Source of the DNA: a virus
Taxonomy: Duplodnaviria > Caudoviricetes
Length of the DNA: 64,000 bases
IMG/VR virus record: IMGVR_UViG_3300032214_001459
Span: 430-64,429 of that record
Direction: 5' to 3' (one strand)
Every line of letters starts with the position of its first letter. The stretch's first letter is position 1. Positions 7,415 to 63,256 of this stretch are shown in pieces. The position numbers were made by a program, and so were the translations under genes. The notes beneath the pieces are model-generated. The model ran no database searches, was not told the origin of the DNA, and was given only the letters and a program-made list of their open reading frames with translations.

Positions 7415-7424
<10 letters not shown>

Positions 7425-28752: not shown

Positions 28753-28965
28753 GTATTGAATGGCTATATTCATCACTAAAGCGTTTATGTAAATAGAAAA
28801 GTATTTAGTTGTTAGTTTCATTATTTATGCTTTCTCTGTTCTAGGGAGATTTATATCTCTATTAGATAGTCCATTTTGTACTCTCTATTACATAGTCCGC
28901 TTCGTCCCATTCATTGATGCAAAATAGGAAAATGACCGGGATGAATGCCAATACCTCGCCAGCCA
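28739..28965 (+). repeat. 14-bp direct repeat of tRNA-Asn 3' end (TACCTCGCCAGCCA) flanking an AT-rich insert
   Basis: Copies at 28739-28752 and 28952-28965; internal 17-bp near-repeat TCTCTATTA(G/C)ATAGTCC at 28856 and 28882. Confidence 0.75.
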
Positions 28966-29048
28966 CTATACTGATGACGGCCTCTTGCTGGAGGGCGTCA
29001 TTATCATTTCTGTCGGTGCGCAGTCAGAGCGTCTAGCAAGCACCATCT

Positions 29049-29138
29049 GGAGCGATGGCAGAGAGGCTTATTGCACCTGTCTTGAAAACAGGAGTCCGTT
29101 TGCGCGGACCGGGGGTTCAAATCCCTCTCGCTCCTCCA
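29049..29138 (+). tRNA. tRNA-Ser(TGA)
   Basis: Cloverleaf with long variable arm, loop CTTGAAA, encoded CCA. Confidence 0.93.
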
Positions 29139-29157
29139 TTTATGTTATTGTTTTGCG

Positions 29158-29236
29158 CACGCAGAAGCATCAGCGGTAGAGCACCCGTGGAATCTAACGG
29201 ACGGTCTCTGGGTTCGACTCCCAGACTGCGTGTCCA
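29158..29236 (+). tRNA. Non-canonical tRNA-like gene, undetermined anticodon
   Basis: CACGCAG/CTGCGTG acceptor + T + CCA, 6-bp T stem TCTGGG/CCCAGA with TTCGACT loop, bulged D stem, 8-nt anticodon loop GGAATCTA. Confidence 0.7.
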
Positions 29237-29311
29237 GCCCCTTTAGCTCAGTGGTAGAGCACCTCACTTGTAATGAGGTGGTCCTCGGTTCAATCCCGAG
29301 AGGGGGCTCCA
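29237..29311 (+). tRNA. tRNA-Thr(TGT)
   Basis: Canonical cloverleaf, loop CTTGTAA, encoded CCA. Confidence 0.95.
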
Positions 29312-32223: not shown

Positions 32224-32625
32224 TTATTTGATTTTGAACTCAGCCCATGTTTTGTCGCCAATTCCAAAGTATTCCCTAGCAAGACCAGACTGGATTATGT
32301 CAATATTCAAGCAGGCTGTTTTCGGGTCATCCACGTTGTCGGATGAGAAGATTCTTGCCAATATCCGTCCGTATTTATCGTTTTTGTCAGGAATTGTATT
32401 TACAAAAACCCATTTATGGTTTGTGAGCCACTCTTCTGTGAATTTCTTGGCTTTAAGACCGAGCTCTTTTTCGGCAAGGTCTTTAGTACGTGATTCTGGA
32501 GTATTTACCCCGTACAGGCGAACCCTCATTTTGTGATGAATATTAAACCCAAGGTCGACCATTAATTCGATTGTGTCTCCATCAATGACCTTTAAGAGCG
32601 TTGCCCCATACCAGAATCGTTCCAT
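32224..32625 (-). CDS. SNase-like (thermonuclease) protein
   Basis: KVIDGDT, RVRLYGVNTPE, DKYGRILA, GLAREY. Confidence 0.9.
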   Translation of the reverse strand: MERFWYGATLLKVIDGDTIELMVDLGFNIHHKMRVRLYGVNTPESRTKDLAEKELGLKAKKFTEEWLTNHKWVFVNTIPDKNDKYGRILARIFSSDNVDDPKTACLNIDIIQSGLAREYFGIGDKTWAEFKIK

Positions 32626-34154
32626 TAGTACTTGGATATTCCGTTATTTTTGCCTGGCGTTCTCTTCGGTGCTGGTGGGCCAACTTGTGGCTTTGGCTTA
32701 AAAAACCCTGGGTCTGGGTTCTTATCCTTGTCAACTCGTGGACCTCTAGCAGGACCACTGGCCTGTTCTGTCCTGTCGGCTCCAGGTCGTGTGGCAGAAG
32801 GATTGCTGGTTCGTGGGTATCTGTCAGCAGGCTTTTGGTCACGTGGGCTTGATGGGGAAGGTTTCTGACCAGGAGGATACTTCTTGCCTGGCTCTGGATA
32901 CCTATCCGCTGGTTTCTGGTCGCGCGGCTTTGATGGGGAAGGCTTCTGTCCTGGTGGGTACTTCTTCTCAGGGTCGGGATACCTATCTGCAGGCTTTCCT
33001 GGCTCGTAACCCTTTGGATAAGGAGGGTTTGGCTTGGGGTTAGGCTTTTTAGGTGGTTCTGAACTGGTTGCTGGTTTCTTTGATTCTCCAGCACGAACCC
33101 TTCTATCGTATTCAGCTCTTGCTGCCCTGCGGGCTGCACGCTCTTTTTCGTCACGGTCTTCTTTTTTGGCGTTTGCAGTAATTCCCTGTTTCTTCAATTG
33201 ATTTCTAACAAAACGCTTTCTATCTTCATCCTGAGTGAATTTGGCTCTTGCTTCAGCTCTTGCGTCTCTTTCGTTTTCTGGTCTGTCATAAATCTGATTC
33301 TGAATTTGACCTTTGCCGTCTTCCTCGGGGACAATCCTTCCCATTCGTGTCGGCGTTATTCCTCTTCTTGCTAACTCGCGTCGGACTTCTTGTCTTCTTC
33401 GCTTTTCAAGGAATGAGTTACTTAGTTTCTTGTATGGCTCTCTTTGTTTTTTAGGCTTGGCTTGCTCGTTTTCTGTACCGTCGAAAACTGTTCCGTCACC
33501 ATCACGGTCGATTTCGTCTTCTGGATTGCTTCCTGGTGGTGGTGCGCCTCCAGCGCGTTGTCCTATCGATTGTCCAAGAGCAGAGCCGCCAGCTTTTACT
33601 TCAATTTCTTCGAATTCTTCTGACTTCTTTTTTGAGTTCTCATATCTTTCAAGAAGTCTTCTTCCTTTTGCCGCCAATGCAGCAGCATCTTCTGCATTCT
33701 TTGGAACTCTCTCGCCCCAAGCCGTAGCGGACAACGCAAGCCTTGTTGCTCTTCCTTTTTCATCAACCATTGGTCCGGATGGATTTGTGAAGAAGCGTGT
33801 GAGGAATGAACCTTTTCTTCTCATCTTCTCTGGAGTATCTGCTGGCCCTTTTACTCCAGGCTTCAAATTTGCGCCTTCAGTGCGCTTGAAGAACTTTCTT
33901 CCTTCAGCAGTAAGACCACCATCTGGGTCCTTTAGTGCTGACTTTTCTTCTCTTTCATCGAACTTGTCTGACAGTTCGTCAAAAACTCGTGCGCCGTAAT
34001 ACTCGTCATAGAGTGGCGTTCCTTCAAGATGTACTTTTCCATCTTCTGTGGGTTCGATTATCAAATCGCTCTTTATGAAAATCTCTTCGATTTTGAGCAA
34101 TTCTTCGTACATTGAGTCAATTTCGTTGTTATCCATGATTACCAATTCTCGCAC
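32625..34154 (-). CDS. Head-module protein with DxDGDG module and Pro-rich tandem repeats
   Basis: KDPDGGLT...GANLKPG...RRKGSF domain; DRDGDGTVFDG; directly downstream of MCP. Confidence 0.75.
   Translation of the reverse strand: MRELVIMDNNEIDSMYEELLKIEEIFIKSDLIIEPTEDGKVHLEGTPLYDEYYGARVFDELSDKFDEREEKSALKDPDGGLTAEGRKFFKRTEGANLKPGVKGPADTPEKMRRKGSFLTRFFTNPSGPMVDEKGRATRLALSATAWGERVPKNAEDAAALAAKGRRLLERYENSKKKSEEFEEIEVKAGGSALGQSIGQRAGGAPPPGSNPEDEIDRDGDGTVFDGTENEQAKPKKQREPYKKLSNSFLEKRRRQEVRRELARRGITPTRMGRIVPEEDGKGQIQNQIYDRPENERDARAEARAKFTQDEDRKRFVRNQLKKQGITANAKKEDRDEKERAARRAARAEYDRRVRAGESKKPATSSEPPKKPNPKPNPPYPKGYEPGKPADRYPDPEKKYPPGQKPSPSKPRDQKPADRYPEPGKKYPPGQKPSPSSPRDQKPADRYPRTSNPSATRPGADRTEQASGPARGPRVDKDKNPDPGFFKPKPQVGPPAPKRTPGKNNGISKY
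32815..32998 (-). repeat. In-frame tandem repeat, 27-aa (81-nt) unit KPADRYPxPxKKYPPGQKPSPSxPRDQ, about 2.3 copies
   Basis: Visible in translation and DNA. Confidence 0.85.
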
Positions 34155-48473: not shown

Positions 48474-50141
48474 TTAGTCGATGTTGTTTTCGAGAAGCTG
48501 GAATTCAACAAGGGCCGCCATGAAATCTGCATCATTTACAACCTCGTCACTCTTTTCCTTGCTTCCTGCGAGCCAATTTGCAGGGATAAGACTCTCCAAC
48601 TTTAGCTCACGTGCTCTCTTCATGATGTGACGCTTAGCTTTGTCTTTATCCTTTGCTCTACCAAAAGCTTGAACAGCATTTCGTAGGTCGTTCTCAGATG
48701 CAATTGGGTACGAGCCATCTGGCATCGCCGAGCCCTCTTTGGACATCGACTCTCTCTGCTCATCGGTGAATGCTCTCTTAAGAGCAATCTCTGCTGCTTC
48801 TGCTTCAATCTCTTCTGCTTCTTCTGGCTCGTACTTGTCGTAACCGAGAATTTCTCCGTCCAAAGCAACAAAAACGTCATACGACTTTCCGTCAATTCCG
48901 TCAATTTCTACAGCGTATGCATCGAAGCCTTCAAAAACATCTGGCTCAACAGCAACTACGTGGCCTTCGATTGACTTAACGGCAATCTCTGCTGCTTCAG
49001 AAAAATCGACAAGCTTCAAACTCGTGTAGTCCGACTTCTGCTCAAATTCTTCTGAGTCAAGTTTATGGAATCCCATAATCTCAGCAGTTGTTCCATCAAC
49101 GAACACTTCTTTTACTGAGCCGTCTTTCGTCTGTACGTCGATGACGAACATGTCAGCGTCTGATGAATATCCAGAGTCAACCACGAAGCCATCGAATGCT
49201 TTTTCGGCAAGTCCCTCAACATGGAGTAGTCCTGGAAGACCCTTCTCTGATACACAACCGCCTGGGCAGTCATCGCAAACCGACATTCCTGCAGGGTGCG
49301 CTTTTCTGTCAAGAGCACAAACAAAACCATCAATGCCGATTTCTTCGGACTTGATTCCGAGCGAAGCAATACGCTCTTCTCTTAGGTTGTTCCAGTCTTC
49401 GTCTGCTGCATTAAAAAGAACTTGTTCATCAACTTCTTCCTCGGACTCAAGACCTTTCTCTGACATTTTCTTCATTTTGCGAACGTAATTCAATGCCTTC
49501 ATAATGTCGTCTTCTGACATTTCATCTTCAGGAACTTCTGTTTCTGCTGACACTTCTTCATCGATTTCTTCGTCAACAGCCATGCCGCCCTTTTCGCCCA
49601 TGCGACGACTCTTCATCCAGTTAAGCGCCTTTTCAAGCTCCTCTTCCGAAACGTCTTCATCGCCCATATCTTCTGCGACTACTTCTTCTTCATCTTCTTC
49701 TTCATCTTCTTCTTCATCTTCGTCGTCCTCTGCCATCATGTCCACCATCTGTGTGTCCATGCCTTTTTCTTCCGGCTTCTTAAGGTCTGGCTTCGTCATG
49801 CCAACGGCATCTTCTGGGACTTCACCGTCTCCAGTTACATCTTCTGATTCTTCGTCTTCTTCTTCGTTGCTTCCGTCTGGAAGAGAAATCATTTTCTTCT
49901 TCTTCTTTTTTGGCATTGAATTTTCAGCATCAACCATGTCGGCGTCGACCATGTCCTCCATAGGAACCATCTTCATCTGTAAAGGTGTTGCGCCACATTT
50001 TGCGCATAGTTCTGCACCCTTTACAAAGCCACATTCGGTAGGGGCGGCACCCTTGGCGCACTTCAGCACGTTTCCATCAGCATCGATGCTTACATTGGCC
50101 TTTTCGTCGTAGCTCATATGACTCCTGAAATTTGCAGGCAA
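48474..50141 (-). CDS. Acidic scaffold-like head protein with PepSY-like repeats
   Basis: Long E/D tracts; two PepSY-like segments (AAEIAVKSIEG.VV.VE...Y.VEI....DVFV...G); AMPDGSYPI...DLRNA motif; position after protease gene. Confidence 0.65.
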   Translation of the reverse strand: MPANFRSHMSYDEKANVSIDADGNVLKCAKGAAPTECGFVKGAELCAKCGATPLQMKMVPMEDMVDADMVDAENSMPKKKKKKMISLPDGSNEEEDEESEDVTGDGEVPEDAVGMTKPDLKKPEEKGMDTQMVDMMAEDDEDEEEDEEEDEEEVVAEDMGDEDVSEEELEKALNWMKSRRMGEKGGMAVDEEIDEEVSAETEVPEDEMSEDDIMKALNYVRKMKKMSEKGLESEEEVDEQVLFNAADEDWNNLREERIASLGIKSEEIGIDGFVCALDRKAHPAGMSVCDDCPGGCVSEKGLPGLLHVEGLAEKAFDGFVVDSGYSSDADMFVIDVQTKDGSVKEVFVDGTTAEIMGFHKLDSEEFEQKSDYTSLKLVDFSEAAEIAVKSIEGHVVAVEPDVFEGFDAYAVEIDGIDGKSYDVFVALDGEILGYDKYEPEEAEEIEAEAAEIALKRAFTDEQRESMSKEGSAMPDGSYPIASENDLRNAVQAFGRAKDKDKAKRHIMKRARELKLESLIPANWLAGSKEKSDEVVNDADFMAALVEFQLLENNID

Positions 50142-50257
50142 TCACCAGTTGGTGTCACCGTTTGTTAATGGTCTAAATTATAACCTACCACGCGCCTCTA
50201 CAATGGATTAGCAATATTTAGTCGTTTAGATGGAAATGTAGACCCTGGACCTTCGTC

Positions 50258-53200
50258 TTACTTCTTGTCTTTATCTTTCTTAAGGATAACTCTTTTACCG
50301 AGTTCGGAGGCGTCATCTCCATACAGAGTCCTGCCTTCCTCCCTCAATCTCTTTGTTGCATTGCGTAATTGTTCAGCACTAAATATGTCATCAATCTTGT
50401 AGTTAGTTCCAAAAATTTCATTAAAACGATTTACAACATTCTGTAGTTCGCCCTGACTGAATCTTCTTTCGTCACCAGTTTTCTTTGAGAATGTGGCTCC
50501 CTTTCTGGCAGCAACACCCTTGTGGGAGACCGTGAAGTCAGAAGAATTAAGGATGTAGTCCCTATTCCGTCTAGTGTTTTTGGCTTTATCGGCAGCGTGC
50601 TTTGACTGAGTAAATTCATACAGGGCTTCATACACGGAGTGCTTCGATGCTGCCAGCTCTTGGTCTAGCTTTTTGCCAGATTCATCTTTCTTCCATACCG
50701 ACTTTGCATCAGGAATCATCCCTGTTCTAATCATCTCATTTATATATGTAGTTGGGACTCCACCGGCCTCCCAGTTCCTGGCAATCTCTCTCGTATTCAG
50801 GCCGACATCGTCAACCCCGAAAGACTCGACCATTCTCCTCTTAAGCTCTTCATGCCACTTATCGCTCTTATCGATACCAAGTGATTCAAGGAGCTGGTCT
50901 ACGTCAAACTGCTCTCGGCTGGTCTTGTCTGATGGGGCTGAAGCTGCTTCTACGACAGACTGCTTAACCAGGTCGCTTGGAGTGTCATCTCCACCAAATA
51001 CTGCCTCTTCAAGAAGCATCTCTTCGGCCATTGAACCAAATTCAGACTCACCGCGCTTCTTGCTGAATATTCCAGTAGACCTGAATTTTCCGGTTTCACT
51101 TACTTCGCCAAGTGAGGCATATTCCTTTTGACTTATTACGCCGTTCTCTTCCTTGTCAATCCAATAAGGGAATGCGTCCTTGCCGAATGTCTCGATGATG
51201 AATCTGTCGCGCATATTGGCTCTACCAAGGTTTTCGACGAACTTTTCGGATGGGGTCATTTCACTGACTCCTTCTTCTTTTTCTGACGTTGGGGCGAATA
51301 GTCTCCAGGCATCAAACCCATCCTGCTTGCCAATTTCTGAAAGCAAGAAACGAACTGCGTCGTGGGTTACGCCAGCGTCGTCATCTGAAAGTTTTGCAAT
51401 ATCTGATTTACCTAGAGCCAGCATCTTCCCAAGCTCGTCGTTGTTCAGCGGACGTGTCTGTGTCCAACGCGCAATCATTCTACTGTTTGGGTTGTCTGGG
51501 TCCGATGGGTAGCTAGAGAACTCGGTTGGAATTCTTACTGCATCCCTAAGTTTTGAAACAGGGACAAACCATTCGTCTGGGTTTACTTCATCTTTTATTT
51601 GATTTGATGAAACTTTCCCAATTTTAACCTTTGGTCTTGCGGCCATGCCCTTAGATACTGAATTGATTACATTCTTTATTTCGATGTTTTTCCGTTCAGC
51701 TGTTGTGTCTTCTGGGTCAAGTGCGATTCCGCGCTCTCTAACTCCACGCCAAAACTTCATTGCGTATTCGAGTTTGCGCTTTGCCTTATCGTTTCTTCTA
51801 GGGTCACCGTCAATGCGTATTGCCGCAAGGTCGCGAGGGCCAGCTATATTCGCGGCAAATTTCTTTCCGCTAACACGCTGATTTTTTGCTCCAGCACCGA
51901 TATCGTCGCTGCCACTTGAAAGGCTTATTGCTCTCAGTCTTCGCGCGTATCTACCCTCGGGGGTATTTGCCCCAGAGGCGAGAGCTAGGTCGTCGAATTC
52001 TTCTGCAGATGGAGCTGGCTTGCGCTTTTTAGGGACCTTTTTTGAACGAAGTATGTTCCTATCTGCAACGCTTTGTCTGTCTTGTTCGTTGAATGGAAGG
52101 CGTCTATTTGCTCTATTTGTCTTCTTTTTAGCTCCTGAAGAAAGAGACAGAGAAAGTAAATCAGAATCGTCGCCGTTATCTCCGTCGTATTCATCGTCAT
52201 CCGGTCCGGCTACATCTTTGAAATCAGGGTCACCAGAGTCAAAACCGCCAGATTCGTCCTCCACTTCTGGTTCATCATCTTCTTCTGGAGCGACATCTTT
52301 AGTCTTTCCCTGTGACTTGACGTATCTATCGAAAGACTCATCCAATCTCTTTCTGCGTTCTTTTCTGGCAGCATCGCGTGCTTCTGTATCACCAGAGTAA
52401 GGAACGTAGAAACCAGCAGGGGCCTGAAGCTCGTCATATATTCCATCTGGATTTTCTGCAATTTTATCTTTTGCACTTTTTATAGATGCATTTTGTGAAT
52501 CATCAAAATAAAGTTTTGCAAGAACTGCGCCAATATCTATTTGCTCTTGAGCTCTGGTTATTGCAATATATACCTTGTTGTGCTCTTCTCTGCGCATCAA
52601 TTGCAGCTGTCTCTCGACAGCAAGTCTGTCCTTTGGACTTAACTTTGCTAATTCTTCTTCTGGTATTACTGGGACCATGTCTTCAGGATTTTTGAAATCA
52701 TCAGCGAGTCTGACCCTCTTCCACTCCCTGCCCTTGGAAACATGAACCGTCATAATGTCGGTATCTGTGTTCCCTTCCGTGGCAAGTTGTCTAACCCTAT
52801 TTCCTAGTTCATTGGCAAGACGCGCAGTTTCTTCGCTGTCTTTTCCTTGTATAAAGAACCCAGGAAGCGAAGCTCTTGGCACAGAACTATCTGGTAAATC
52901 ACCTTTCATTGGTGGGACAAAATCATCGGGTGTGTCTGATGGGAATGTCTGAGCTGTACCAACTTGCTGTATTAGTCCCTGCCTAAATTCAATTACAGCA
53001 TCTGGGTATTCTGCTTTCATCTTCTTTATGACTTTTGATATATCTCCGTGATAATCAATTTTTCCTGGTTTCCCATCTTCGATAGGGCCCCATGTTTTTT
53101 TAACTTTGTTCCATCTTCTGAACTTGTACTTTCCTCCATTTGCTCCTTCGCCAGCGATTATCAATGCCCCGGATGGCTTCCCATCATCTCCAATATGAAG

Positions 53201-56200
53201 TTTTACGAACACCTCACCATCAGACACGCTCTCTTCTTTTTTAGGTATTATCCAAGAGATTTTCTGGCTACTTCCAGCTTTTGTTCCAGGCTTAAGTTTC
53301 CCAACTCTGTCCATCTCGTCGGTAGTTATATAATCTTTACCAGATTCCATGTCAGGAAGGTTTATACCCTCGCGCATTGGTCTTAATCCCTGATACTTAA
53401 TCTCATTGCCATTTATGTCTGTATATTTTTGGCCCTGTGGACGGAGAAGGTCTTTAAAGAACCTAGCCCCCTTCGCATCTCCTCTTACTCCGCCATCCTT
53501 TGATTTAGGGTATGCAAGGTTGTGTAAAGTCCGGAGTTCTGATTCTCCACCCTTAATCATCTTGTCAATTTTTGCCAACATCTCGTCTTTTGATGGGTAT
53601 CTGCCCTTTTTCTTGTCAAATCTCCATACGTCTTTAAGTAGTTTCGATGGTTTTGGTCTTCCTTCGATTCCAAACTTCTTATCTAGGTCGCCAACAATCC
53701 AGTCGAGCTGAGTGAAGAAATCAAGAAACTTTTCATGCGTATCCGCAGGTATGCCTATGGCTGGAATTTTTCCGTCAGCTCCACCTGGGGCGTATTCATC
53801 TCTAAGCTCGTTGATGGACTTGAGCATCGAGTCTCTTCCATCTTTTTCCAGTATTTCTATAAGGTCTACAGCGACACCATCGAGGGTGTACTTCTCGGAA
53901 ACTGTTCTCAATCTTCCAGCTAGCTCTTGTGGATTTTTTATATCTTCTATTCCGTCAAGGTCCAGGTATGCAATTTGATGCGCATTGATGCCATCCTGGA
54001 TTACCTTCAATGCTTCAACCATTACTCCTGAGTTAGTCGAAGTTAGAACAGCATCGGCGCCAGTCATGTCCTCCACTATCTGACCTTCAGCGCGTGGAAC
54101 ATGTTCGTCGTAAAGTTTTGAAATGATGTCTTTTACTTCTTTTTCGTTTTTGCCCTTAAAGTCGACCGCTCTTCCGCCAAGCTTGTATTTAACTTCTATG
54201 AATCTAAGTTTCTTTTCAAGGTCTTTTTTAGGAAGTATTTTCCCATCTGGTCCGTTTATGTTGAGCGCGTTTATAACAACATTTTGCGCCTCGCCGACAA
54301 CATGGTGCCATATGTTTTTTTCTGGTGTTCCCATGTTTTGATAAAAGTTAAAATCGTCTATATTGCCTTGCATCAGCACGACATTGGCCAAATATGCAGG
54401 CATTGCTCCATACCGGAATGAACGTGTTAGAGGAAGTCTGAATGTTGCATTAGCTTTCTCCAGGGCATCCATGGCTCCTCTGAACCCATAGATTGCTTGA
54501 CGTGAGTCGCCGACCATTATTATTGGCATGTTCTTTGCATTGTCGGCAAGTACTTTTGCCAATACGGGGTTTACGTCTTGGGCTTCGTCGAACATGAATA
54601 CATCAAGAGGCTTATCACTCGTAACAGAAACAATCGATACAGTTCCGGTTACTTGTCTATTACCTGACAGCTCACCCTTTTTTGTTTCTTTCTTCGATGG
54701 AGGATTTAGCTTCCGTATTACTGCGGCAACCTTTTCTCCAGTTTCTGGAATCTTGAATTCTACAAGGTCACCAACCTTTATCTTTCCTGCATCCATGTCC
54801 TCAACGGTTCCAAGTTTGACTTTATCAAATACAGTTTCGTTTGGTCTATGGCCAATCAAACCTTTGTCATACCTGAGGTCTGGATTTGTTAGGGCCCACA
54901 TCTTGATTTGATAGTCCTGCGGGATGAGCACGTTTGATTTTGGGTCAACTGTTTCATCCCAAAGCATTTGTGCATATTGAACCATTTTTTCATCGATTGA
55001 ATCTTCGGTTGGTACTGGTTCGCCCTTTTGTAATGCCTGAATTTTTTCTATATCACGAAGTAGGAAATGTTGTTTTGACAGCTTCTCATCCGAACTTTCA
55101 GCAAACCTGCCAAGAGCTTTTTTGAGATTTTGGGAAATAGTAAAACCATCATCAGTTTCTTCGTCAACAATCCCATCTTTAGAAAGGCGTTCTGCGATAT
55201 TCGGTGCAGAGTCATAGCTTGTGTACCCAAGCTCTCTGTACCCTGGTATCTCTCCTGTGAATTCCTTTGTTTCTCCCTCAAACGTGGTTGCAACGTTTAC
55301 GGTGTTACGTTTTGCTCCTCGCAACTTCTTAGAGTCTCTTGGACCAACTCCAAGCTGTATCTTTCTAGTCGTTCCAGCCCCATAGAACGCATCTCCAGTT
55401 CCAAGAACAAGTGACCAATAAGCTATTTGGTTACCGGTTGCAACACCTGTATTTCTAGGCATTACTCTGTTGCCGTCTTTTGCATTTCCCCTGTTAAATA
55501 CTGTGTAGTAAATTTGCTTACCAGGGTAAAGTGCTGCAACAGCACGAGCATTCTGCTTGAGGTTAGTGGTCTTTCCGGAACCAGCGCCTGCACCAATTGC
55601 AACAATTCCTGATGTCTCACTTTCCAACATATGAACAAGCGTGTCTATTGAAGCCTTTTGTTGTTCTGTTGGTTCAAATTCATCAGGAAGGAACTTATAC
55701 TTTTCTCTATACGAGACAGAGTCGTCTAGTCTTGGAATCGTTGTTTTACCGTCAAGGCTGACGATTGGTTTTGCACCACTCGAAAGAGAAAGTGCTCCAG
55801 ATTCATCAAGAATCCTTCCACTGGAGTCTCTTTGAGTTATGCCTGAGCCATATTCTTTTTCATCGCCAAAGTATCTAAGTTCTTTTACTTTTCTAACACC
55901 AACTTGAGTGCCAGATGAAAGAGCGATTACAGAGTCCTTTGCCTCATCGGTTGCAGCGCCAACAGCTTCTGTGGCTTTTTCTGTAACATCTGGTTTACCT
56001 TTGCGCTCAGTGTCTGGAACACCTGCAAGTCTCCTCATCGTTGGAGACCTATCCATAATGTAATCAGCGGCTTGCTGCGCTTTTTCCATCGCCTTAATAA
56101 ATGCGCCTGGGTCTTCTTTGAGGTTTGAAATCCAACTCTTTATATAGACAACATGGTCTTTTCTTACTTCTGGTGTTATTCCGACTGCTGCTAGAAGAAA

Positions 56201-59200
56201 TGAAGAACCCATTTCTGCAATCAGCTCCTCTGATGCACGAATCTTTTTATTTTTTCCGTAATCTCTTACAGTTTGCCTATCTATACGTGCCGCGCCACCT
56301 GTCCAGTGAGTTAGTTCATGGAAGAGTGTTCCGTAATACTGTTCTGGAGACTTGAACATTTCGTACAAAGGCATCTGTATTAAATCTTCGCTTGGGGAAA
56401 AGAAAGCCCCATCTCCACCAAACTTAATGACTGGCTTAATTTCTTCTATTACTGCCTCAGCATCTTTTATTTTAAGTGCAGGGTCAAGACGTTCTTTGCC
56501 AACATCCAACAGCTTCTTTACGTATGCATCTGGGAGACCTTCAATGTCGTCCAAGTTGTATACAGTCTGAACAATAAAATATTTACCAGTAGAACCCTCT
56601 CTCGGGACAAGGATATTTACCCCATCCTTGCCATCCTTCACCTTCCCACCGAACTTCGCCCATTGCGTTTTGCCAGCCCAGAAATTTCCCCTGTATTTAT
56701 TTTGTCTATGAGAATTAGCGAGCAAGAGTGAGTTCATGCCCTGGTATAGGCGACTTCTTGTTGGGTTTTTTGCGTAAAGAGTAGGGGTTCTCCAAGGTAC
56801 GTCCCAGTACGTTGCAGTTGGATTTTTTTCCATCTCGATGAGAGCTTCAAGAATGGACTTTCCTATTTCGTCATAAATCTTTTTATTTTCACCAGATGAC
56901 AAAGAAAGACCATCAGCCTTATCGGCCAAGGTTTTTGATGCTGGCTTGTCGCCAAAGACACTGCCAGATGAAAGAGCCAAGTTGTACTCAGGGACCTTGT
57001 TGGTGTCTGACTCCATCTTCTCAATAGGAACACGACGCTTGGATTCTTTGCCAGCAGAAGCAATATCTTCAATGTACTTTTCTGTTATTGCAGAACGAGC
57101 ATTCCAGAGAGAATCCTGTTCTTTGGAAATCATTCTTGTTGCTACGTCGCTAGCTTCAATATTCTTCTTATCTTTAATCGTGGATACACGTGAATACTTA
57201 TTTATGTCGCCAATCCACTCATACGACCTATCGCGGATTGCTTCTAGCTTTCCTGCTTCATTGCTTCCAGGCTTTACTGACTCAAGTCTTACATTCGTAT
57301 CCCGAACGGTTGCCTTGTGCTTTGCTAAAGAGCCATTGTTGAGAGCATCCATGGCATCATCAACGATGTCCATATAATCCTGGAACTCATCGTCTCCACC
57401 AGTAACCAGGTCAAATGCCTTCTTTGTGTCAAAGCCATTAGCTTCAACTATTCCATCTCCACCGAGCATGTCTGCAATATCGGTTGTTATGTCATCTTTG
57501 ATTAGAGGGTTCTCTTCAAGGTAATCATGCACCTGGTCGAGTAATCCGTTTCCTTCATCGGTTGTTGTTATGTCGTAGTTGTAGTAGTCGCGACCCCTAC
57601 CACCAGAAGAGAGGGATGGGCTCTCTTCTGTCGCTGGCTTCGATGGGAGATTTCTTGAGTCTCTGCTTACGAGCTTTCCGCTACGTCTATCAACGAGTCT
57701 GTCTGCAAATTGATTTCCCTTGCCGAGCTTCCAGTATTCTTTGTTTTCACTATTGAGGTTTGCTGGCTTAAGGCTTGCCTGATATGCGAGTTCGCCAATT
57801 TCGTCAGCATAAACCTCGTCCCATTGCGCAAGGATTCTGTTGGTTCCCTTGTCTTTCCCTGTATTTATTTTCTGCTCAGCTCTGACGTAGTAGAGGTCTG
57901 GAACAGAGTTATACCCGATGACTACTTGCTGGTCCTTTGTGGAAGGAAGAATCATTTCATTCCCTCTACGCTCAACGCGGCCACCGGATATAGCCATTAT
58001 GTTCCCTCTGCCAATTTGATTCATTGTTTCGCGAAGGTCGAATCTGTCTGGCTCATATCCTCTAGAAGTGGCCCAGTCGTCGCTTGCCCCAGAAGAAAGT
58101 GATACGCCGTCTTTTTCTTTGCGCATTTTGCGCATGTGTCGTTGTTCGCGCTTTCTAACTTCCATTCTAGTTAGACCAAGCTCTTCCGCAACATCTTGCA
58201 GAGAAGCTCCAGTTGTCATTCTCTTGCGATAAATCTCTTCATCACTCATGTCTTTTGGCTTTTTGCGAGAAGTGACTTTTGGTCTTTCTTCTTCTGGGCC
58301 CATCATGTCAAGAAGAGTGTCGTAGAAATCTACATTTGTATCGCTCTCGTAATTTTCTTCGTCAAAATTTGGTCTTGTATCGTCGTCTGCTCCAGAAGAG
58401 AGGGAGAGTGAACTTCTCTTCTTTGCTTCTTTTTTCTTTCTTAATGGGACTGGCGATAATGAGTCAAAACCGTATTGACGCATCCAGTCGGATAGGCCAT
58501 CTTTCCCATCTGGACCAATACCCCTAAATCCAGTTGCATCTGGTCTGTTGTTATACATGAATTCATGCATCGCATCTTCCATGCCGTTGTAGAATTCGTT
58601 GTCATCACCACGTGATGCTTCAAGGAAGGTGCCAGCGCGCATAACCATTCCCGAATACCAATCTCGGTAATCGACAGAGGAAGTGTTTTTATCGCTAAAT
58701 TTTGCTGGACGTCTATTTGTATCGTCACCAAGCCACATGACTCTGGCTTGATTGACGCCCATCTCTCTTCCGCGTAGGTAATCAGGGGACCTGTAGGCAT
58801 CTGGCTTATATCTAGGAACATCAGTCCAGCCGTACCCGGAGTCTTTCCAGTCTTTAATTACTTCTTCAAACTTCTTACGCTTTTCAAGTTCTTCCGGAGA
58901 TACAAGTGACTCAAATTTTGGGTCACCAGAGTGGCGGGTGAGTCTCTTTTCCTGCTCACCAGAAGATAGCGATGGTGTTTTTTCTTTATCGGTTTTTGGC
59001 TTCTTGCTGAAGTCGAGTTCACCGCGTTTTACTTTTTCCTTCTTTGCAGGAGCTTTCTTCGCAACTGCTTTCTTCGCAGCTTTCTTTACTGGTTTTGCGT
59101 CGCCATCGAGAATGTCACTTACATCATCTGCTTCGTATTTTGGTTCTCTACTGGTAATCGTTTTGCCAGGCTTCTCCTTGCCGCCTTCGCCAGGGATATT

Positions 59201-61090
59201 TGCAACGTCTCTTCTTTGTGATGAGGAAAGCTTTGGGTTATTGACTGAACCAGGTCCGTCTGGAGTTGGGTCTGGTTGTTCCCATCCTGGGATGTTGTCA
59301 AAAAGAGTTCCGTCTCTGTTCTTGTCGACTCTTGTTCGCGGGTCAAGGTCGCCTTCCGGCATACCAAATCCACGACCCCTGCGTTTGCCGCCACCGATAT
59401 TTGGTCTATCAATTGCTCTTGAGCCGAGCGACCGACCTATTCTGTAACCGAGGGCTTTACCCTCTATCTCATGTTCTGAGAATTTTTTTTTTAAGTTGTG
59501 GAGAGCCGTATCGACTGCGTCTATGAGGTTTTCAGTTACCCCGGAGATAATGACTATTCCTTCTGAGTCAACAAAAGTCTCTGCTCTGTGGTAATCAAAT
59601 ATTGGGTCAAGGGCTGTTTTTACTCTAAATGCAAAACTTGGCTCGACTGGTATTACGTACGACTTCTCACCCATATCATCGTCATCGCCGAACTCTGCAA
59701 GATTCTTGTACTTGTTTCTTTTCTTCTTTTTCTTGCCAACCGCATTTCTAACAATTCCAAGAACAAACTCGCCTGGATACTTGAGTTCAAGAACATCAAT
59801 AATTGCATTTTCTGCTTCGGAAACATGCTCTTCAAGTTCTTTGGAGCCACTGCTCAAAACAATTCCATTTGGAATAACTGCAAATCTGCATTTTCCTTCT
59901 GGTTCGACTGGCATGTCAATGATTTTGCACTTTGAGCCGCCTTGGTAGAAGACGCAGTTTGAGCACTTAACACCGATGCGTGCTACTTCGTTTTCTTCTG
60001 CAGGGCTATATCCAGCCCATACACCGTTTGAATCTTCATTGAATTTACCGTGGCGTGAAACTATCTTCAGCAAGGCATCGCGAAGGTCTGCCTCTTCCTT
60101 ATCCAAAGATGGTTTTGCGTTTGAATCATACTGAACTGCAGGAAGAGGAATCATTGTTAGTCCATCGCCACTTGGCTTTACGGCGACTGGTATGGATGGC
60201 ATCTGTTGAGGTCTAATCACGCGCTGTGGCTCGTTTGCCGGCATAGGCCTTCCGCTAACCATAGGCATAGGTGCTGACTGTGGAGTGCGAACTGGAGACT
60301 GTGGAATGCTGATTACCTCAGGCGTCCCAAACATGTATCGACCTTGGCTTCTCATGAAGCCACACTTGTACTTCTTGGCACCACTCATCTCGTGGCGCGT
60401 GAATACAACTTCGTCACCATCTATTGAGTGAACAGAAACTTTCGCGCCAAAAAGATTTGAAAGTTCTTTTTCCATTTCTTCGTAGCCGTTGCTCTCATCC
60501 CTCTGAGGCATCATCGCGATAGGAGTTCCATATGCAGAATCGTCTGCCTTTACGGATATCGTTCCTGTCAGCTGATTTGCTCCGTGCAGAACAGGGCTGA
60601 CTTCATAAAGTTCAACTTCATAAAGAATATTCGCTTGTGCCTTTTGGTCAAACTGAGCTCTTAGGGTCTTATAGCCAATAGACCACTCTTGTTCTTCCCC
60701 AAAGAAAGCAACGTTAAGAAATGCCTCTTTGCCTTTTTCTGAATTCAAATTGAACTGGACCTTTGCGAACAAACCGCCTATGCCAGCAATCTTCATTTTC
60801 AACGGAAGACGTGGGTCCTGTGGTCCAACCTCGTAAATTTCTAGAACTTTTCCGATAGGGTCGTTCCAGTTGTGGCCCCATACAACTCTTGGCTTTCTGC
60901 GGAGCAGACTCTTAGTAAAAGCCCCCGAAGCACAAACATCACCAACTGAGTCTTTATTGCCAATTCCGGCCACGAAGCATTCGACTATTCCCTCGGCCTC
61001 ATCAAGATTGATTGGTCCGTTTACTGACTTTGCGCCATGTGCCGACGTTGCTTTGTATTCGAATGCTTCATTTGACATTTTTGGAACCAA
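50258..61090 (-). CDS. 3610-aa prohead protease fusion: HK97-type protease + ArdC-like + SF1 (UvrD-like) helicase
   Basis: GNKDSVGD...GAF..SL...WGHNWNDPIGK...EWSIGY...LYEVSPV..GAN (about 60550-61000); PW...Y.GMN.LLL and FHELTHWTG...EELIAEMGS (about 56060-56880); GAGSGKTT, DEAQD, GDSRQAIYGFRGA, SFRYG, TVHVSKGREW, YIAITRA (about 52540-55680). Confidence 0.9.
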   Translation of the reverse strand: MVPKMSNEAFEYKATSAHGAKSVNGPINLDEAEGIVECFVAGIGNKDSVGDVCASGAFTKSLLRRKPRVVWGHNWNDPIGKVLEIYEVGPQDPRLPLKMKIAGIGGLFAKVQFNLNSEKGKEAFLNVAFFGEEQEWSIGYKTLRAQFDQKAQANILYEVELYEVSPVLHGANQLTGTISVKADDSAYGTPIAMMPQRDESNGYEEMEKELSNLFGAKVSVHSIDGDEVVFTRHEMSGAKKYKCGFMRSQGRYMFGTPEVISIPQSPVRTPQSAPMPMVSGRPMPANEPQRVIRPQQMPSIPVAVKPSGDGLTMIPLPAVQYDSNAKPSLDKEEADLRDALLKIVSRHGKFNEDSNGVWAGYSPAEENEVARIGVKCSNCVFYQGGSKCKIIDMPVEPEGKCRFAVIPNGIVLSSGSKELEEHVSEAENAIIDVLELKYPGEFVLGIVRNAVGKKKKKRNKYKNLAEFGDDDDMGEKSYVIPVEPSFAFRVKTALDPIFDYHRAETFVDSEGIVIISGVTENLIDAVDTALHNLKKKFSEHEIEGKALGYRIGRSLGSRAIDRPNIGGGKRRGRGFGMPEGDLDPRTRVDKNRDGTLFDNIPGWEQPDPTPDGPGSVNNPKLSSSQRRDVANIPGEGGKEKPGKTITSREPKYEADDVSDILDGDAKPVKKAAKKAVAKKAPAKKEKVKRGELDFSKKPKTDKEKTPSLSSGEQEKRLTRHSGDPKFESLVSPEELEKRKKFEEVIKDWKDSGYGWTDVPRYKPDAYRSPDYLRGREMGVNQARVMWLGDDTNRRPAKFSDKNTSSVDYRDWYSGMVMRAGTFLEASRGDDNEFYNGMEDAMHEFMYNNRPDATGFRGIGPDGKDGLSDWMRQYGFDSLSPVPLRKKKEAKKRSSLSLSSGADDDTRPNFDEENYESDTNVDFYDTLLDMMGPEEERPKVTSRKKPKDMSDEEIYRKRMTTGASLQDVAEELGLTRMEVRKREQRHMRKMRKEKDGVSLSSGASDDWATSRGYEPDRFDLRETMNQIGRGNIMAISGGRVERRGNEMILPSTKDQQVVIGYNSVPDLYYVRAEQKINTGKDKGTNRILAQWDEVYADEIGELAYQASLKPANLNSENKEYWKLGKGNQFADRLVDRRSGKLVSRDSRNLPSKPATEESPSLSSGGRGRDYYNYDITTTDEGNGLLDQVHDYLEENPLIKDDITTDIADMLGGDGIVEANGFDTKKAFDLVTGGDDEFQDYMDIVDDAMDALNNGSLAKHKATVRDTNVRLESVKPGSNEAGKLEAIRDRSYEWIGDINKYSRVSTIKDKKNIEASDVATRMISKEQDSLWNARSAITEKYIEDIASAGKESKRRVPIEKMESDTNKVPEYNLALSSGSVFGDKPASKTLADKADGLSLSSGENKKIYDEIGKSILEALIEMEKNPTATYWDVPWRTPTLYAKNPTRSRLYQGMNSLLLANSHRQNKYRGNFWAGKTQWAKFGGKVKDGKDGVNILVPREGSTGKYFIVQTVYNLDDIEGLPDAYVKKLLDVGKERLDPALKIKDAEAVIEEIKPVIKFGGDGAFFSPSEDLIQMPLYEMFKSPEQYYGTLFHELTHWTGGAARIDRQTVRDYGKNKKIRASEELIAEMGSSFLLAAVGITPEVRKDHVVYIKSWISNLKEDPGAFIKAMEKAQQAADYIMDRSPTMRRLAGVPDTERKGKPDVTEKATEAVGAATDEAKDSVIALSSGTQVGVRKVKELRYFGDEKEYGSGITQRDSSGRILDESGALSLSSGAKPIVSLDGKTTIPRLDDSVSYREKYKFLPDEFEPTEQQKASIDTLVHMLESETSGIVAIGAGAGSGKTTNLKQNARAVAALYPGKQIYYTVFNRGNAKDGNRVMPRNTGVATGNQIAYWSLVLGTGDAFYGAGTTRKIQLGVGPRDSKKLRGAKRNTVNVATTFEGETKEFTGEIPGYRELGYTSYDSAPNIAERLSKDGIVDEETDDGFTISQNLKKALGRFAESSDEKLSKQHFLLRDIEKIQALQKGEPVPTEDSIDEKMVQYAQMLWDETVDPKSNVLIPQDYQIKMWALTNPDLRYDKGLIGHRPNETVFDKVKLGTVEDMDAGKIKVGDLVEFKIPETGEKVAAVIRKLNPPSKKETKKGELSGNRQVTGTVSIVSVTSDKPLDVFMFDEAQDVNPVLAKVLADNAKNMPIIMVGDSRQAIYGFRGAMDALEKANATFRLPLTRSFRYGAMPAYLANVVLMQGNIDDFNFYQNMGTPEKNIWHHVVGEAQNVVINALNINGPDGKILPKKDLEKKLRFIEVKYKLGGRAVDFKGKNEKEVKDIISKLYDEHVPRAEGQIVEDMTGADAVLTSTNSGVMVEALKVIQDGINAHQIAYLDLDGIEDIKNPQELAGRLRTVSEKYTLDGVAVDLIEILEKDGRDSMLKSINELRDEYAPGGADGKIPAIGIPADTHEKFLDFFTQLDWIVGDLDKKFGIEGRPKPSKLLKDVWRFDKKKGRYPSKDEMLAKIDKMIKGGESELRTLHNLAYPKSKDGGVRGDAKGARFFKDLLRPQGQKYTDINGNEIKYQGLRPMREGINLPDMESGKDYITTDEMDRVGKLKPGTKAGSSQKISWIIPKKEESVSDGEVFVKLHIGDDGKPSGALIIAGEGANGGKYKFRRWNKVKKTWGPIEDGKPGKIDYHGDISKVIKKMKAEYPDAVIEFRQGLIQQVGTAQTFPSDTPDDFVPPMKGDLPDSSVPRASLPGFFIQGKDSEETARLANELGNRVRQLATEGNTDTDIMTVHVSKGREWKRVRLADDFKNPEDMVPVIPEEELAKLSPKDRLAVERQLQLMRREEHNKVYIAITRAQEQIDIGAVLAKLYFDDSQNASIKSAKDKIAENPDGIYDELQAPAGFYVPYSGDTEARDAARKERRKRLDESFDRYVKSQGKTKDVAPEEDDEPEVEDESGGFDSGDPDFKDVAGPDDDEYDGDNGDDSDLLSLSLSSGAKKKTNRANRRLPFNEQDRQSVADRNILRSKKVPKKRKPAPSAEEFDDLALASGANTPEGRYARRLRAISLSSGSDDIGAGAKNQRVSGKKFAANIAGPRDLAAIRIDGDPRRNDKAKRKLEYAMKFWRGVRERGIALDPEDTTAERKNIEIKNVINSVSKGMAARPKVKIGKVSSNQIKDEVNPDEWFVPVSKLRDAVRIPTEFSSYPSDPDNPNSRMIARWTQTRPLNNDELGKMLALGKSDIAKLSDDDAGVTHDAVRFLLSEIGKQDGFDAWRLFAPTSEKEEGVSEMTPSEKFVENLGRANMRDRFIIETFGKDAFPYWIDKEENGVISQKEYASLGEVSETGKFRSTGIFSKKRGESEFGSMAEEMLLEEAVFGGDDTPSDLVKQSVVEAASAPSDKTSREQFDVDQLLESLGIDKSDKWHEELKRRMVESFGVDDVGLNTREIARNWEAGGVPTTYINEMIRTGMIPDAKSVWKKDESGKKLDQELAASKHSVYEALYEFTQSKHAADKAKNTRRNRDYILNSSDFTVSHKGVAARKGATFSKKTGDERRFSQGELQNVVNRFNEIFGTNYKIDDIFSAEQLRNATKRLREEGRTLYGDDASELGKRVILKKDKDKK

Positions 61091-61186: not shown

Positions 61187-63256
61187 CTATCCAACCTGTC
61201 CAAACGTCCATGCATTTTTTGCTTCTGTTTCAGAAATTTCCAATTGGTCTTTGGCGAGAATGTTCGCATACATACCAACAATCTCTTCTCTAAAGACGGA
61301 GAATCTCTGCTCTTCTCCTGCATGAGAGAATGACTTCATCATCATTTCCTCCATCGAGGAACGAATTCCAGAGTTCATTGAGACTATTCGTGATATCTGT
61401 GAATCAATATTTTTCTTGATTGTTGCAGGGGCAATCGTTCTTGGCTTGAGTCCCTTTTGAGAATATGATTCTTTTCTGAACTCAAAAGAGTCGTTGATTA
61501 TTGCCGAGATAACAGGGCGAAGGTCATCTTCCATCTGCTTATTCCACGTCTCTGTGGCAAAAATTGAATCAAGGTCAAGGGTTCCGGACATGAGAGCTTT
61601 CTTTGACTTGCTACTTCCAGCTTTCTCCAAGACGACTCTTTGCTGTCTTTCGACGACTCTTTCAATTCCCCTAGAGAGGATTTCAGACCAGCGCTCAATC
61701 GCCATTTCCGATTTATCAAAATCCTCTGCTAGTGCTGTTTTGTACTGAAAACCATCCTGTGGGTCGCTTGCCATTCCTTGTGGGATTGGAGCTGCCCCAG
61801 TAGCTGGAGCCATTCCGGCGACCTCTGGTGGGAGCGTTGTTTGAGCCATATCGCCAGCACCAGTAGCGGCGACCTCAGCCATTGCGCCCTGCATTGTGTT
61901 TGGGTCAAGCGGAGGAACAGCACCCTCTACAGGCGGCATCCCTGGCATCCCTGGCATTGGAGGCATTCCTGGTGCCCCAGGAGCGCCGCCAGGTATCTGT
62001 GCAGCGTTCTCTTCCATCTTCTTTTTCGTATTAGCAATAGGAATCAAGTTTGGATTCATAAGCAAAGAGTCAGCAAGGTCTGCTTCAACTTCTTTTCTTC
62101 CGCTTGCAATTCTGTATTCGTTCACAGAGATAAGACCCTGACCGAGTTCTTCTTTTAGGTATCTCTCACGTTCCTGCTTGTAAAGCAACAAGATTGGAAC
62201 TTCGCTTGTATCGAAGTCGAGGTAGTACTTTTCATCAAGTTCATCAAGCGCTCTTGCTATTGGCTCCAGGTGGGGAAGCATTGTCTCAACCCAAAAAACT
62301 CTTATCTCTTCAGATGAGTTGCTGAATGTTCTTCCCGAAGCATTTCCAATTACAGATTCTGGAACTCCAAACGCAGCAAGAATTTCTTCTTTGGTGATTT
62401 GGCGCATCTGTATATAGGCAGCATCTCTTGGGTTTGCAGATGTATCAACAAAGTCGACACCTTCGTCGGCAGCAATGACTGTGGTGTGTCCAGTTTTTCC
62501 TAAATTACCCCTAAATCTATTACGTAATTCTTCCTTGTCATCTTCATCAATCTCGCCCCTAACAACAAGCAAACCGCCAGGTCTTCCGTCGTTAAGAAGA
62601 TAGTTTCTGTTGTACAACTTGGCTAAGTTTTCTATCTCTACAGCGACTCCGGATGCTTCCAATGGGGTTAGAGACAAGTATGGGTCGAGTGGGTGTGGTC
62701 TTCTAATCCAGACAACATCCTCTGGCTTCATGATTATCTTTTTGCCATAAGGCATCTGTACTTCGTAACCAGACACAAATGTCCTGGCGTCAGGGATTGG
62801 TGCGGTTGATTGTGGTGGCAAAAGGTTCAAACCGATGACTCCACCATCACGCCCACGAATCTTCTCTATGAATGCACCACGAGTTCCAAGGAGCAATTGA
62901 GCTGAAAGTCTGTATCTAAAAATAAAAGAGTTTTCGCCAATGTTCGATTTAACGTTGAGAAGCTCAAGCAGTGAAGAGCGTTTTGCCTCACGGCCAACTA
63001 CGATTTCTCCGTCCTTCGAATTATCTTTTCTTAGGATGATTGGGAGTCTTGCTTGGTTCCCGGCAATTGCATCAATACACCTGTTAACCCAGGTGATTTT
63101 TTGCATACCTTCCCTGTAGGCACGCTCAATATCCCATGAGTCTCTGTATGGCTTATCTGAGTAACTTGGGTTGCTGGATACAGGGGCACCATAACCAATG
63201 GCAGACTTATTTTGTTTTTGACCAAGAGACTTATTTTCTGATGGATTCCAAGGCAT
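61187..63256 (-). CDS. Portal protein (HK97 family)
   Basis: WVNRCIDAIA...LP, LLLGTRGAFI, LTPLE, NDGRPGG, ILAAFGVPES.IG; Pro/Met-rich C-terminal extension. Confidence 0.92.
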   Translation of the reverse strand: MPWNPSENKSLGQKQNKSAIGYGAPVSSNPSYSDKPYRDSWDIERAYREGMQKITWVNRCIDAIAGNQARLPIILRKDNSKDGEIVVGREAKRSSLLELLNVKSNIGENSFIFRYRLSAQLLLGTRGAFIEKIRGRDGGVIGLNLLPPQSTAPIPDARTFVSGYEVQMPYGKKIIMKPEDVVWIRRPHPLDPYLSLTPLEASGVAVEIENLAKLYNRNYLLNDGRPGGLLVVRGEIDEDDKEELRNRFRGNLGKTGHTTVIAADEGVDFVDTSANPRDAAYIQMRQITKEEILAAFGVPESVIGNASGRTFSNSSEEIRVFWVETMLPHLEPIARALDELDEKYYLDFDTSEVPILLLYKQERERYLKEELGQGLISVNEYRIASGRKEVEADLADSLLMNPNLIPIANTKKKMEENAAQIPGGAPGAPGMPPMPGMPGMPPVEGAVPPLDPNTMQGAMAEVAATGAGDMAQTTLPPEVAGMAPATGAAPIPQGMASDPQDGFQYKTALAEDFDKSEMAIERWSEILSRGIERVVERQQRVVLEKAGSSKSKKALMSGTLDLDSIFATETWNKQMEDDLRPVISAIINDSFEFRKESYSQKGLKPRTIAPATIKKNIDSQISRIVSMNSGIRSSMEEMMMKSFSHAGEEQRFSVFREEIVGMYANILAKDQLEISETEAKNAWTFGQVG

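Follow-up and report, generated by a model that had tools for sequence, protein, structure and literature searches.

Why should a phage carry its prohead protease at the head of a chain of several thousand residues? The question is raised by a 64,000-nucleotide (nt) stretch of DNA from an uncultured lake phage (the window; 64,000 of the 64,429 bases of the linear viral contig IMGVR_UViG_3300032214_001459 in IMG/VR, rated about 40% complete), in which a minus-strand open reading frame (ORF) opening at TTG runs for 3610 codons without a stop. An ATG five codons inside the ORF is the likelier start. A first-pass annotation of the DNA had read the gene as a prohead protease fused to about 3400 amino acids (aa) of cargo. 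The fusion stands, but the cargo is not a single one: the chain is a punctuated polyprotein, in which 12 conserved junction peptides bound every recognisable module. Our preferred reading, to which we assign a probability of roughly 0.55, is that the gene product is a cargo polyprotein, targeted to the capsid and self-dicing, with the only prohead protease of the phage as its first module.

The gene is located between the portal and capsid genes, in a minus-strand block of head genes that reaches to the capsid gene, separated from the portal gene upstream by 96 nt (all positions in Table 1). A homologue search with the whole-length protein returned 171 proteins at E <= 0.001; our homologue counts use the best 120 of these 171, or 119 after setting aside the window's own copy. 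The listed homologues are 2000–4760 aa long and come from several data sources; S78, ArdcN and MPTase are present in nearly all of them, in most cases together with UvrD families. The protease domain is N-terminal in 111 of the 119; the remaining eight start at internal positions and are probably gene calls that were truncated or split. Beyond this common set, the cargo varies, with pentapeptide-repeat, extra superfamily 2 (SF2) helicase, KTSC, RNase_T or extra helix-turn-helix (HTH) families appearing in the same protease-led chain. In addition, 420 stretches in IMG/VR code for proteins related to the first 416 residues. Each of five large related records (134–170 kb; four rated complete, two with terminal repeats) holds exactly one S78 locus, always in the giant frame, where it shares 2954–3723 aa of open frame with the single MPTase match of that record.

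The N-terminal module is a normal HK97-type protease in the slot after the portal gene, as the first-pass annotation had it. The Pfam family Peptidase_S78 (PF04586) matches with an E value of 2e-10 and 41.5 bits against a cut-off of 21 (47.1 bits in a six-frame search), and the PHROG head maturation protease family covers aa 30–196. Residues H73, S137 and H169, which may form a catalytic triad of the His-Ser-His type, are invariant both in 112 and in 26 aligned sequences. Structural approaches added little: a profile search found no solved structure for aa 5–414 (best E 0.23), an AlphaFold2 model of that region, built from 21 sequences, was too poor for use (mean predicted local distance difference test score [pLDDT] 47.6), and a predicted complex between aa 1–195 and a 40-aa junction segment scored 0.01 and gave no verdict. 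To judge from the locus counts given above, which cover the S78 family only, the module is the phage's only prohead protease.

The remainder of the chain is divided by a recurring four-residue word, [LFM]-[SA]-S-G, which occurs at 12 junctions (11 LSSG and one LASG). The 11 copies of LSSG compare with 0.10 expected, and none of 2000 shuffles reached that number. All 12 junctions fall outside the Pfam envelopes, which occupy 41% of the chain (P about 0.002). They delimit an ArdC module (aa 1400–1726), a helicase (aa 1772–2985), an HTH-containing piece (aa 900–1000), a C-terminal unit of 551 aa and several spacers of 20–54 aa, so that some junctions stand in tandem. Within the window, LSSG is found 11, 9 and 2 times in three giant frames and three times elsewhere in all six frames.

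The same word marks the family as a whole. Across the 120 listed homologues, LSSG was observed 1015 times against 10.9 expected (about 93-fold), FSSG 150 times against 5.5, LASG 79 times against 12.1 and MSSG 43 times against 3.9, whereas the control words LSAG (5 observed, 12.1 expected), LSSA (11 and 10.5) and GSSL (14 and 10.9) remained about or under expectation. The motif is flanked by charged or small residues, R/K/G/S before it and R/K/A after it. Ten near homologues, reaching down to 54% identity, allowed the sites to be compared one by one: eight of the 12 are kept in all ten, as invariant islands in variable, charged linkers. Family members with few motifs retain three to five of them at the main joints. 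When all frames of at least 100 aa are counted in two complete relatives, most copies of the motif fall in the giant ORFs (29 of 39 in one, 22 of 26 in the other). On the strength of these patterns, the junction peptides are probably processing sites.

The elements that the first-pass annotation had listed all exist, at about the positions it gave, and profile searches for Peptidase_S78, ArdcN, MPTase-PolyVal and UvrD, which it had called for, matched every family. A Cys4 cluster, placed there at about 59885–59970, is indeed present and fully conserved among the aligned homologues. The KKAAKK patch is likewise real, but its description as histone-like holds for composition only. The sigma-70 region-4-like HTH, expected at about 58140–58210, scores 20.9 bits with Sigma70_r4 in the whole protein (cut-off 24.1) and rises above the cut-off, to 27.7 bits, when the 97-aa segment between junctions is scanned alone; PF04545 (region 4) is annotated in many of the listed homologues.

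Between two junctions lies a complete ArdC-like pair, consisting of ArdcN (PF08401, aa 1403–1495, E 1.2e-12) and MPTase-PolyVal (PF18818, aa 1543–1668, E 7.9e-36). The solved ArdC chains 6sna and 6i89 match aa 1427–1687 over chain residues 26–293 (E 8e-32), that is, nearly end to end, and H1591, E1592 and H1595 of the HELTH zincin motif are invariant among the aligned homologues. The module that follows is, as first proposed, a superfamily 1 (SF1) helicase with large insertions. UvrD-helicase (PF00580; 40.4 bits, cut-off 23) and AAA_19 (PF13245; 31.4 bits, cut-off 25.1) match at about aa 1814–2206, and UvrD_C (PF13361) reaches 25.2 bits, just under its cut-off of 25.6, covering aa 2776–2851 only. 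A Walker A motif at aa 1835, DEAQD at 2168, a motif at 2194 and later motifs at 2781 and 2841, which we take to be helicase motifs I, II, III, V and VI, are interrupted by gaps of 326 and 575 aa. The PHROG families matched by the chain are anti-restriction protein, DNA helicase and head maturation protease. The C-terminal module gave a predicted model with a pLDDT of 77.3, for which Foldseek returned no match in the PDB or BFVD at E <= 0.001 and the ESM Atlas no usable match; on six unexplained segments, Pfam at E <= 1 yielded nothing above threshold.

How might such a cargo reach the capsid? According to the first-pass annotation, fusion to the protease would guarantee encapsidation. Packaging as such is well supported by context, but fusion may not be the means of it: a leader shared with another polyprotein of the window may target the cargo instead. 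With the first 105 residues of that 2706-aa sister polyprotein as the query, a HMMER search of 1.84 billion representatives found 30 proteins. The leader is exactly N-terminal in 19 of them (166–4703 aa), and in all 19 the first junction then follows at aa 103–141. In ten others it sits at about aa 469–643 of giant chains, nine of these being among the listed S78 polyproteins and one an 856-aa entry, and in the last protein it occupies aa 378–444. Both placements, internal and N-terminal, recur in the complete genomes G001 and G002. In phage SPN3US, the prohead protease removes N-terminal propeptides from ejected head proteins at a short motif, and T4 propeptides direct proteins to the prohead core, as described in PMC10052503. 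By analogy, a leader followed by a junction looks like a removable prohead-targeting propeptide. As a separate observation, a 509-aa ORF after the capsid gene (32625–34154, minus strand) contains a partial copy of the leader at its aa 182–226, with 39% identity to the leader of the sister polyprotein.

A further conserved feature lies where the internal leader begins. Between a conserved 120-aa domain and the leader, the coding strand carries a run of ten A residues, and 49 of 51 distinct related loci have A9–A11 at this place (43 A10, three A11 and three A9). Past the run, the zero frame is open in 46 of the 49 loci; with one extra A the frame meets a stop within at most six codons in 47 of 49, and with one A fewer within at most five codons in 49 of 49. 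The run is invariant at the DNA level while its flanks vary. The lysine codons of the ORF comprise 162 AAA versus 172 AAG, and the other six KKK triplets mix the two. An A-run with nearby stops in both other frames matches the layout of the slippage site in Thermus thermophilus dnaX, where slippage on a run of nine leads to short and long products in a ratio of about 1:1 (PMC5009743). Slippage at the A-run is thus likely to be programmed, and the gene would probably yield, next to the long form with the cargo, a short one with the protease. Around the run, prediction of conserved RNA structure gave no pairs, and no RNA run was listed among the public runs containing the stretch. Two database gene calls (P0068 and P0013) begin inside the leader, just past the position of the run, which fits a splitting of the long ORF at the A-run in some assemblies by a difference or an error in run length.

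The features described so far can be joined into the following sequence of events. The gene would be expressed late, along with the portal and capsid genes, and slippage of RNA polymerase or of the ribosome on A10 would give two products, a short one of about 540 aa, comprising the protease, the Cys4 domain and a small domain, and the full-length chain. The long form and the protease-less sister polyproteins would enter the prohead by way of the shared leader of about 90 aa. Inside the prohead, the chains would be cut at [LFM]-[SA]-S-G, most likely by S78 in cis and in trans, to release about 13 pieces, among them a 36.6-kDa ArdC, a 135-kDa SF1 helicase, a 12-kDa sigma-region-4 HTH protein, a 62-kDa module of unknown kind and short spacers. 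These pieces would leave with the DNA at the next infection, and ArdC and the helicase could then act on the entering DNA before any phage gene is expressed.

Parts of this sequence merit different degrees of trust. That DNA-protecting and unwinding enzymes, made late in a head module, are carried in the capsid to the next infection is well supported by context, and we consider it likely that the cargo is packaged and ejected. The earlier suggestion of encapsidated enzymes that are needed right after injection is thereby supported in part, and it agrees with the published concept of polyvalent proteins. We are more doubtful of a bolder version with a retrovirus-like logic, in which slippage would set the ratio of a short protease or assembly form to the long form, the long form would take some 3,000 aa of cargo into the prohead by means of its internal leader, S78 would read one four-residue code, and three polyproteins (about 8,900 aa) would be diced into about 30 proteins injected with the DNA, including ArdC, the helicase, an exonuclease, acetyltransferases and a free sigma-region-4 domain.

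Which enzyme would cut the junctions is the step at which our reading is most exposed, and we give S78 an even chance of being it. S78 is the one protease that always stands in cis with the junctions, and it is extremely conserved. All 14 S78 polyproteins that lack MPTase-PolyVal are devoid of HExxH motifs anywhere, and still contain 5–12 junctions. The hydrophobic residue of the junction, two positions before a small residue, fits assemblin-type and T4-type sites. Several observations weigh on the other side. The NCBIfam equivalog TIGR01543 scores 44.7 bits, below its cut-off of 59. LSSG is absent from the capsid and portal proteins of the window, the capsid protein offering only L-[ST]-S-[HR], and no covariation was found between the protease sequence and a preference for LSSG, FSSG or LASG. 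A junction that opens with L, F or M would be suitable, too, for a zinc protease whose cut precedes a hydrophobic residue, and there are four HExxH motifs in the polyproteins of the window, at aa 1591 of the giant chain, at aa 643 and 2016 of the 2706-aa sister and at aa 563 of a second sister of 2567 aa. In the relative G006, which has no MPTase match, a sister polyprotein contains three HExxH motifs, one of them at aa 555. Finally, orthologous proteins encoded outside the head module of two genomes (G001:92500–97650, 1648 aa; G002:48900–53900, 1595 aa) have a single L-[SA]-S-G in common, which is located at aa 581–586 within a Gly/Pro-rich linker; a protease confined to the prohead would not reach this junction. 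The protein matches no PHROG family and may be a tape measure.

In a rival reading, polyprotein and junction code remain as described, but the cutter is a zinc metallopeptidase, either an MPTase of the ArdC type or one of the HExxH modules of the sisters. It would be active in the cytoplasm, within the head or once injected, and S78 would mature the capsid only. In favour of it, beyond the HExxH motifs and the junction in the non-head protein, Iyer et al. (2017; PMC5512222) proposed MPTase domains as autoprocessing enzymes of polyvalent proteins, the HExxH of the G006 sister is placed similarly to that of the 2567-aa sister, and MPTase-PolyVal occurs once per record in all five large records. 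We nonetheless regard this rival as unlikely. As the MPTase-less S78 polyproteins lack HExxH and keep their junctions, a zinc enzyme could cut them only in trans. The relatives of one such MPTase-less polyprotein (P0107) are found only in 11-kb and 48-kb records; the 48-kb record, that of G006, has no PF18818 match, though it is only 30% complete. The other HExxH modules stay under Pfam cut-offs, the best being a Peptidase_Mx match in the 2706-aa sister at 18.6 bits (cut-off 27). Moreover, according to PMC5512222, two plasmid proteins with an MPTase domain, ArdC of pSa and TraC1 of RP4, are not cut when they are transferred.

Alternatively, the junctions might not be cut at all but be conserved flexible linkers or recombination joints in one giant multidomain chain, much as the virion RNA polymerase of phage N4 is packaged unprocessed (PMC5512222). 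The module content of relatives does differ at the junctions, with insertions beside them and variable Pfam content. Yet an invariant four-residue word is superfluous for a linker, and the permuted control words are not enriched. The junctions also occur in tandem at 20–54 aa, the leader with its junction in 19 of 19 sister proteins resembles a removable propeptide, and the chain itself contains a protease. We judge an uncut chain to be quite improbable.

Still less probable, in our estimate only a slim chance, is that the polyprotein is never packaged and that the producing cell alone makes and processes it, as a case of late co-expression of replication or defence proteins. The short slippage product, which would be without the leader, is compatible with this. 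On the other hand, the gene is located between those for the portal and the capsid, one sister polyprotein in the same block has a region of head-morphogenesis type, the leader layout resembles known prohead-targeting propeptides, and an anti-restriction protein made late would presumably be useful only if carried to the next cell.

The first-pass annotation had named a chimeric assembly as a finding that would undo it. Contigs from four public lake and freshwater runs all stop at 59040–59100, in a Lys/Ala low-complexity stretch, with several different continuations, and no contig crosses it with 31 nt to spare on each side, as a false join would predict. The pieces abut there with overlaps of about 26–30 nt, and depth spikes at this place (47x in one run), so the stretch reads as a Lys/Ala-coding repeat common to the Lys/Ala-rich genes of other organisms rather than as a false join; a contig from an independent study spans 49900–59094. 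With the S78 domain leading a giant chain in 111 of 119 listed homologues from several sources, most with ArdC and helicase families, and S78 and MPTase in one open frame in five of five large records, two of them with terminal repeats, we dismiss an assembly chimera as having next to no probability.

The general concept is not new. Polyvalent proteins, defined by Iyer, Burroughs, Anand, de Souza and Aravind (2017; PMC5512222), combine 2 to 15 unrelated conflict-type domains in the context of virion genes, and they were proposed to be packaged and injected, with their domains freed by embedded peptidases in analogy to RNA-virus polyproteins. The present protein resembles them as a giant phage chain with ArdC-N, MPTase-PolyVal, helicase and HTH domains encoded among virion genes. 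It differs in the position of its assemblin-like peptidase: in polyvalent proteins such peptidases are of limited distribution and always C-terminal (PMC5512222), whereas here the domain is N-terminal in the great majority of relatives and is itself the maturation protease. No junction peptide, shared leader or slippery run is known to us from that article, whereas all three are present here, and it mentions UvrD-type helicases only for actinomycete plasmids, whereas here one is part of a phage chain. The family is set apart by four features: the N-terminal maturation protease, the family-wide junction word, the shared leader and the candidate slippage site.

Other known systems share single aspects. 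Processing in T4 (by gp21), SPN3US and phiKZ relies on a short recurrent motif (A-X-E in SPN3US), and N-terminal propeptides of 20–254 aa are removed there from ejected head proteins, comparable to the leader described here (PMC10052503). In those phages, as far as that account goes, cargo and protease are encoded by separate genes, whereas here three polyproteins totalling about 8,900 aa are found, of which one is fused to the protease; the motif differs as well, and the protease belongs to the S78 (HK97) rather than the T4 type. ArdC of IncW plasmids (6sna, 6i89) has the same single-stranded DNA-binding N domain and HExxH metallopeptidase, matched over nearly its full length, but it is free-standing and transferred by conjugation, not a junction-bounded module of a phage polyprotein. 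Thermus dnaX (Atkins et al. 2016; PMC5009743) shares a long zero-frame ORF, a run of at least nine A/T and nearby stops in both other frames; in contrast, the present candidate slippage site, proposed from sequence, is in a phage head gene, and the long product would exceed the short one by about 3,070 aa of cargo.

Carriage of anti-restriction proteins in the head has precedents. T4 IPI* is a head-packaged anti-restriction protein that is injected with the DNA. The same applies to the Dar proteins of phage P1 (DarA, DarB and DdrB), of which DdrB is proteolytically processed before packaging (PMC5512222). The proteins of both systems are unrelated to those described here and are encoded by separate genes, with no junction code.

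The fused form was not found in 50,697 GenBank phage records by tblastn with the first 3000 aa: 273 records were hit, none covering at least 80% of the query, and the best covered only ArdC (about 10%) or the protease (6%). Megablast with 15.5 kb gave no match among GenBank phages, and no description of such an architecture or motif was found in the open-access PMC and bioRxiv literature. We also met no cleavage motif of an HK97-type prohead protease in the open-access literature searched. If S78 does the cutting, the junction would provide a defined cut site for an S78 protease, and site and leader together might be used for packaging foreign proteins into phage heads. If our reading holds, these abundant lake phages with genomes of about 134–170 kb would load their capsids in bulk and in modules, using polyproteins, one leader and one cut-site code, which would explain how cargo modules are freely swapped between relatives. 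It would also provide a second natural case of dnaX-type slippage setting a protein ratio, here in a structural gene of a virus, and a concrete, testable list of proteins delivered by a phage before its own genes are expressed, including ArdC, so far known from conjugative plasmids.

Table 1. Positions of the polyprotein gene, its modules and junctions, and related genes in the 64,000-nt window
Feature	Position	Strand	Remarks
Portal gene	61187..63256	(-)	directly upstream of polyprotein ORF; PHROG portal, E 1.8e-62
Giant polyprotein ORF, 3610 aa	50258..61090	(-)	TTG start; likelier ATG at 61078; full-length homologues
Peptidase_S78 (HK97-type prohead protease), aa 35-178	60557..60988	(-)	H73, S137, H169 invariant
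Cys4 cluster, aa 376-401 (C376, C379, C388, C401)	59888..59965	(-)	invariant in 26/26 and 21/21 aligned sequences
Junction LSSG, aa 412	59846..59857	(-)	weakest; in conserved stretch; VGSG/VGSS in 3/9 near homologues covering site
Shared leader, aa 532-624	59219..59497	(-)	56% identical to aa 13-104 of 2706-aa sister polyprotein, E 1.5e-19
A10 run, aa 533-536, candidate slippage site	59483..59492	(-)	A9-A11 in 49/51 related loci
Lys/Ala-rich low-complexity patch, aa 669-684	59039..59086	(-)	public-run contigs break here
Junction, aa 708	58958..58969	(-)	10/10 near homologues
Junction, aa 897	58391..58402	(-)	7/10 near homologues
Sigma-70 region-4-like HTH, aa 959-991	58118..58216	(-)	inside 101-aa segment 900-1000
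Junction, aa 998	58088..58099	(-)	10/10 near homologues
Junction, aa 1160	57602..57613	(-)	10/10 near homologues
Junction, aa 1373	56963..56974	(-)	10/10 near homologues
Junction, aa 1397, immediately before ArdC	56891..56902	(-)	9/10 near homologues
ArdC module, aa 1400-1726 (ArdcN + MPTase-PolyVal, HELTH 1591-1595)	55913..56893	(-)	junctions on both sides
Junction, aa 1724, immediately after ArdC	55910..55921	(-)	10/10 near homologues
Junction, aa 1769, before helicase	55775..55786	(-)	10/10 near homologues
UvrD-like SF1 helicase module, aa 1772-2985	52136..55777	(-)	two large insertions; profiles and motifs
Junction, aa 2983, after helicase	52133..52144	(-)	10/10 near homologues
Junction LASG variant, aa 3037	51971..51982	(-)	9/10 near homologues
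Junction, aa 3057, before C-terminal module	51911..51922	(-)	10/10 near homologues
C-terminal module, 551 aa	50261..51913	(-)	fold without known match; length conserved across family
Sister polyprotein, 2567 aa	40750..48453	(-)	head morphogenesis (PHROG 7625); 2 LSSG + 2 LASG; HExxH at aa 563
Major capsid protein, 460 aa	34244..35626	(-)	PHROG 10, E 5.2e-57; about 100-aa N-terminal region before capsid fold
Sister polyprotein, 2706 aa	12060..20180	(-)	N-terminal leader; 9 LSSG + 2 variant junctions; no Pfam protease

The two sister polyproteins carry modules of their own. In the 2706-aa protein, an RNase_T/DnaQ-like exonuclease occupies aa 151–337 and there are matches to GNAT acetyltransferases; it is one of the two HExxH motifs of this protein that gives the weak Peptidase_Mx match mentioned above. 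The head-morphogenesis PHROG match of the 2567-aa protein covers aa 1974–2180, where the NCBIfam model XopAD/skwp scores 86 bits against 2000 and is thus far sub-threshold.

The capsid protein contains L-[ST]-S-[HR] at aa 94–97 and E-F-K-[SAT] at aa 108–113, near the expected propeptide boundary, and both are kept in ten of ten relatives; these proteins are 77–93% identical, so the shared L-[ST]-S-[HR] says little. Either motif could be a maturation site. Directly after the polyprotein gene, a 555-aa ORF (48474–50141, minus strand) with a Cys-rich N-terminus and a highly acidic Asp/Glu stretch matches no family and may encode a scaffold. Elsewhere, the window holds a Nol-like carbamoyltransferase gene (4322–5755), a primase/helicase gene (21222–23018), a ribonucleotide reductase gene (25220–27199) and five tRNA genes, for Met, Arg(tct), Asn, Ser(tga) and Thr(tgt), at 7351–7424, 27207–27283 and 28677–29311.

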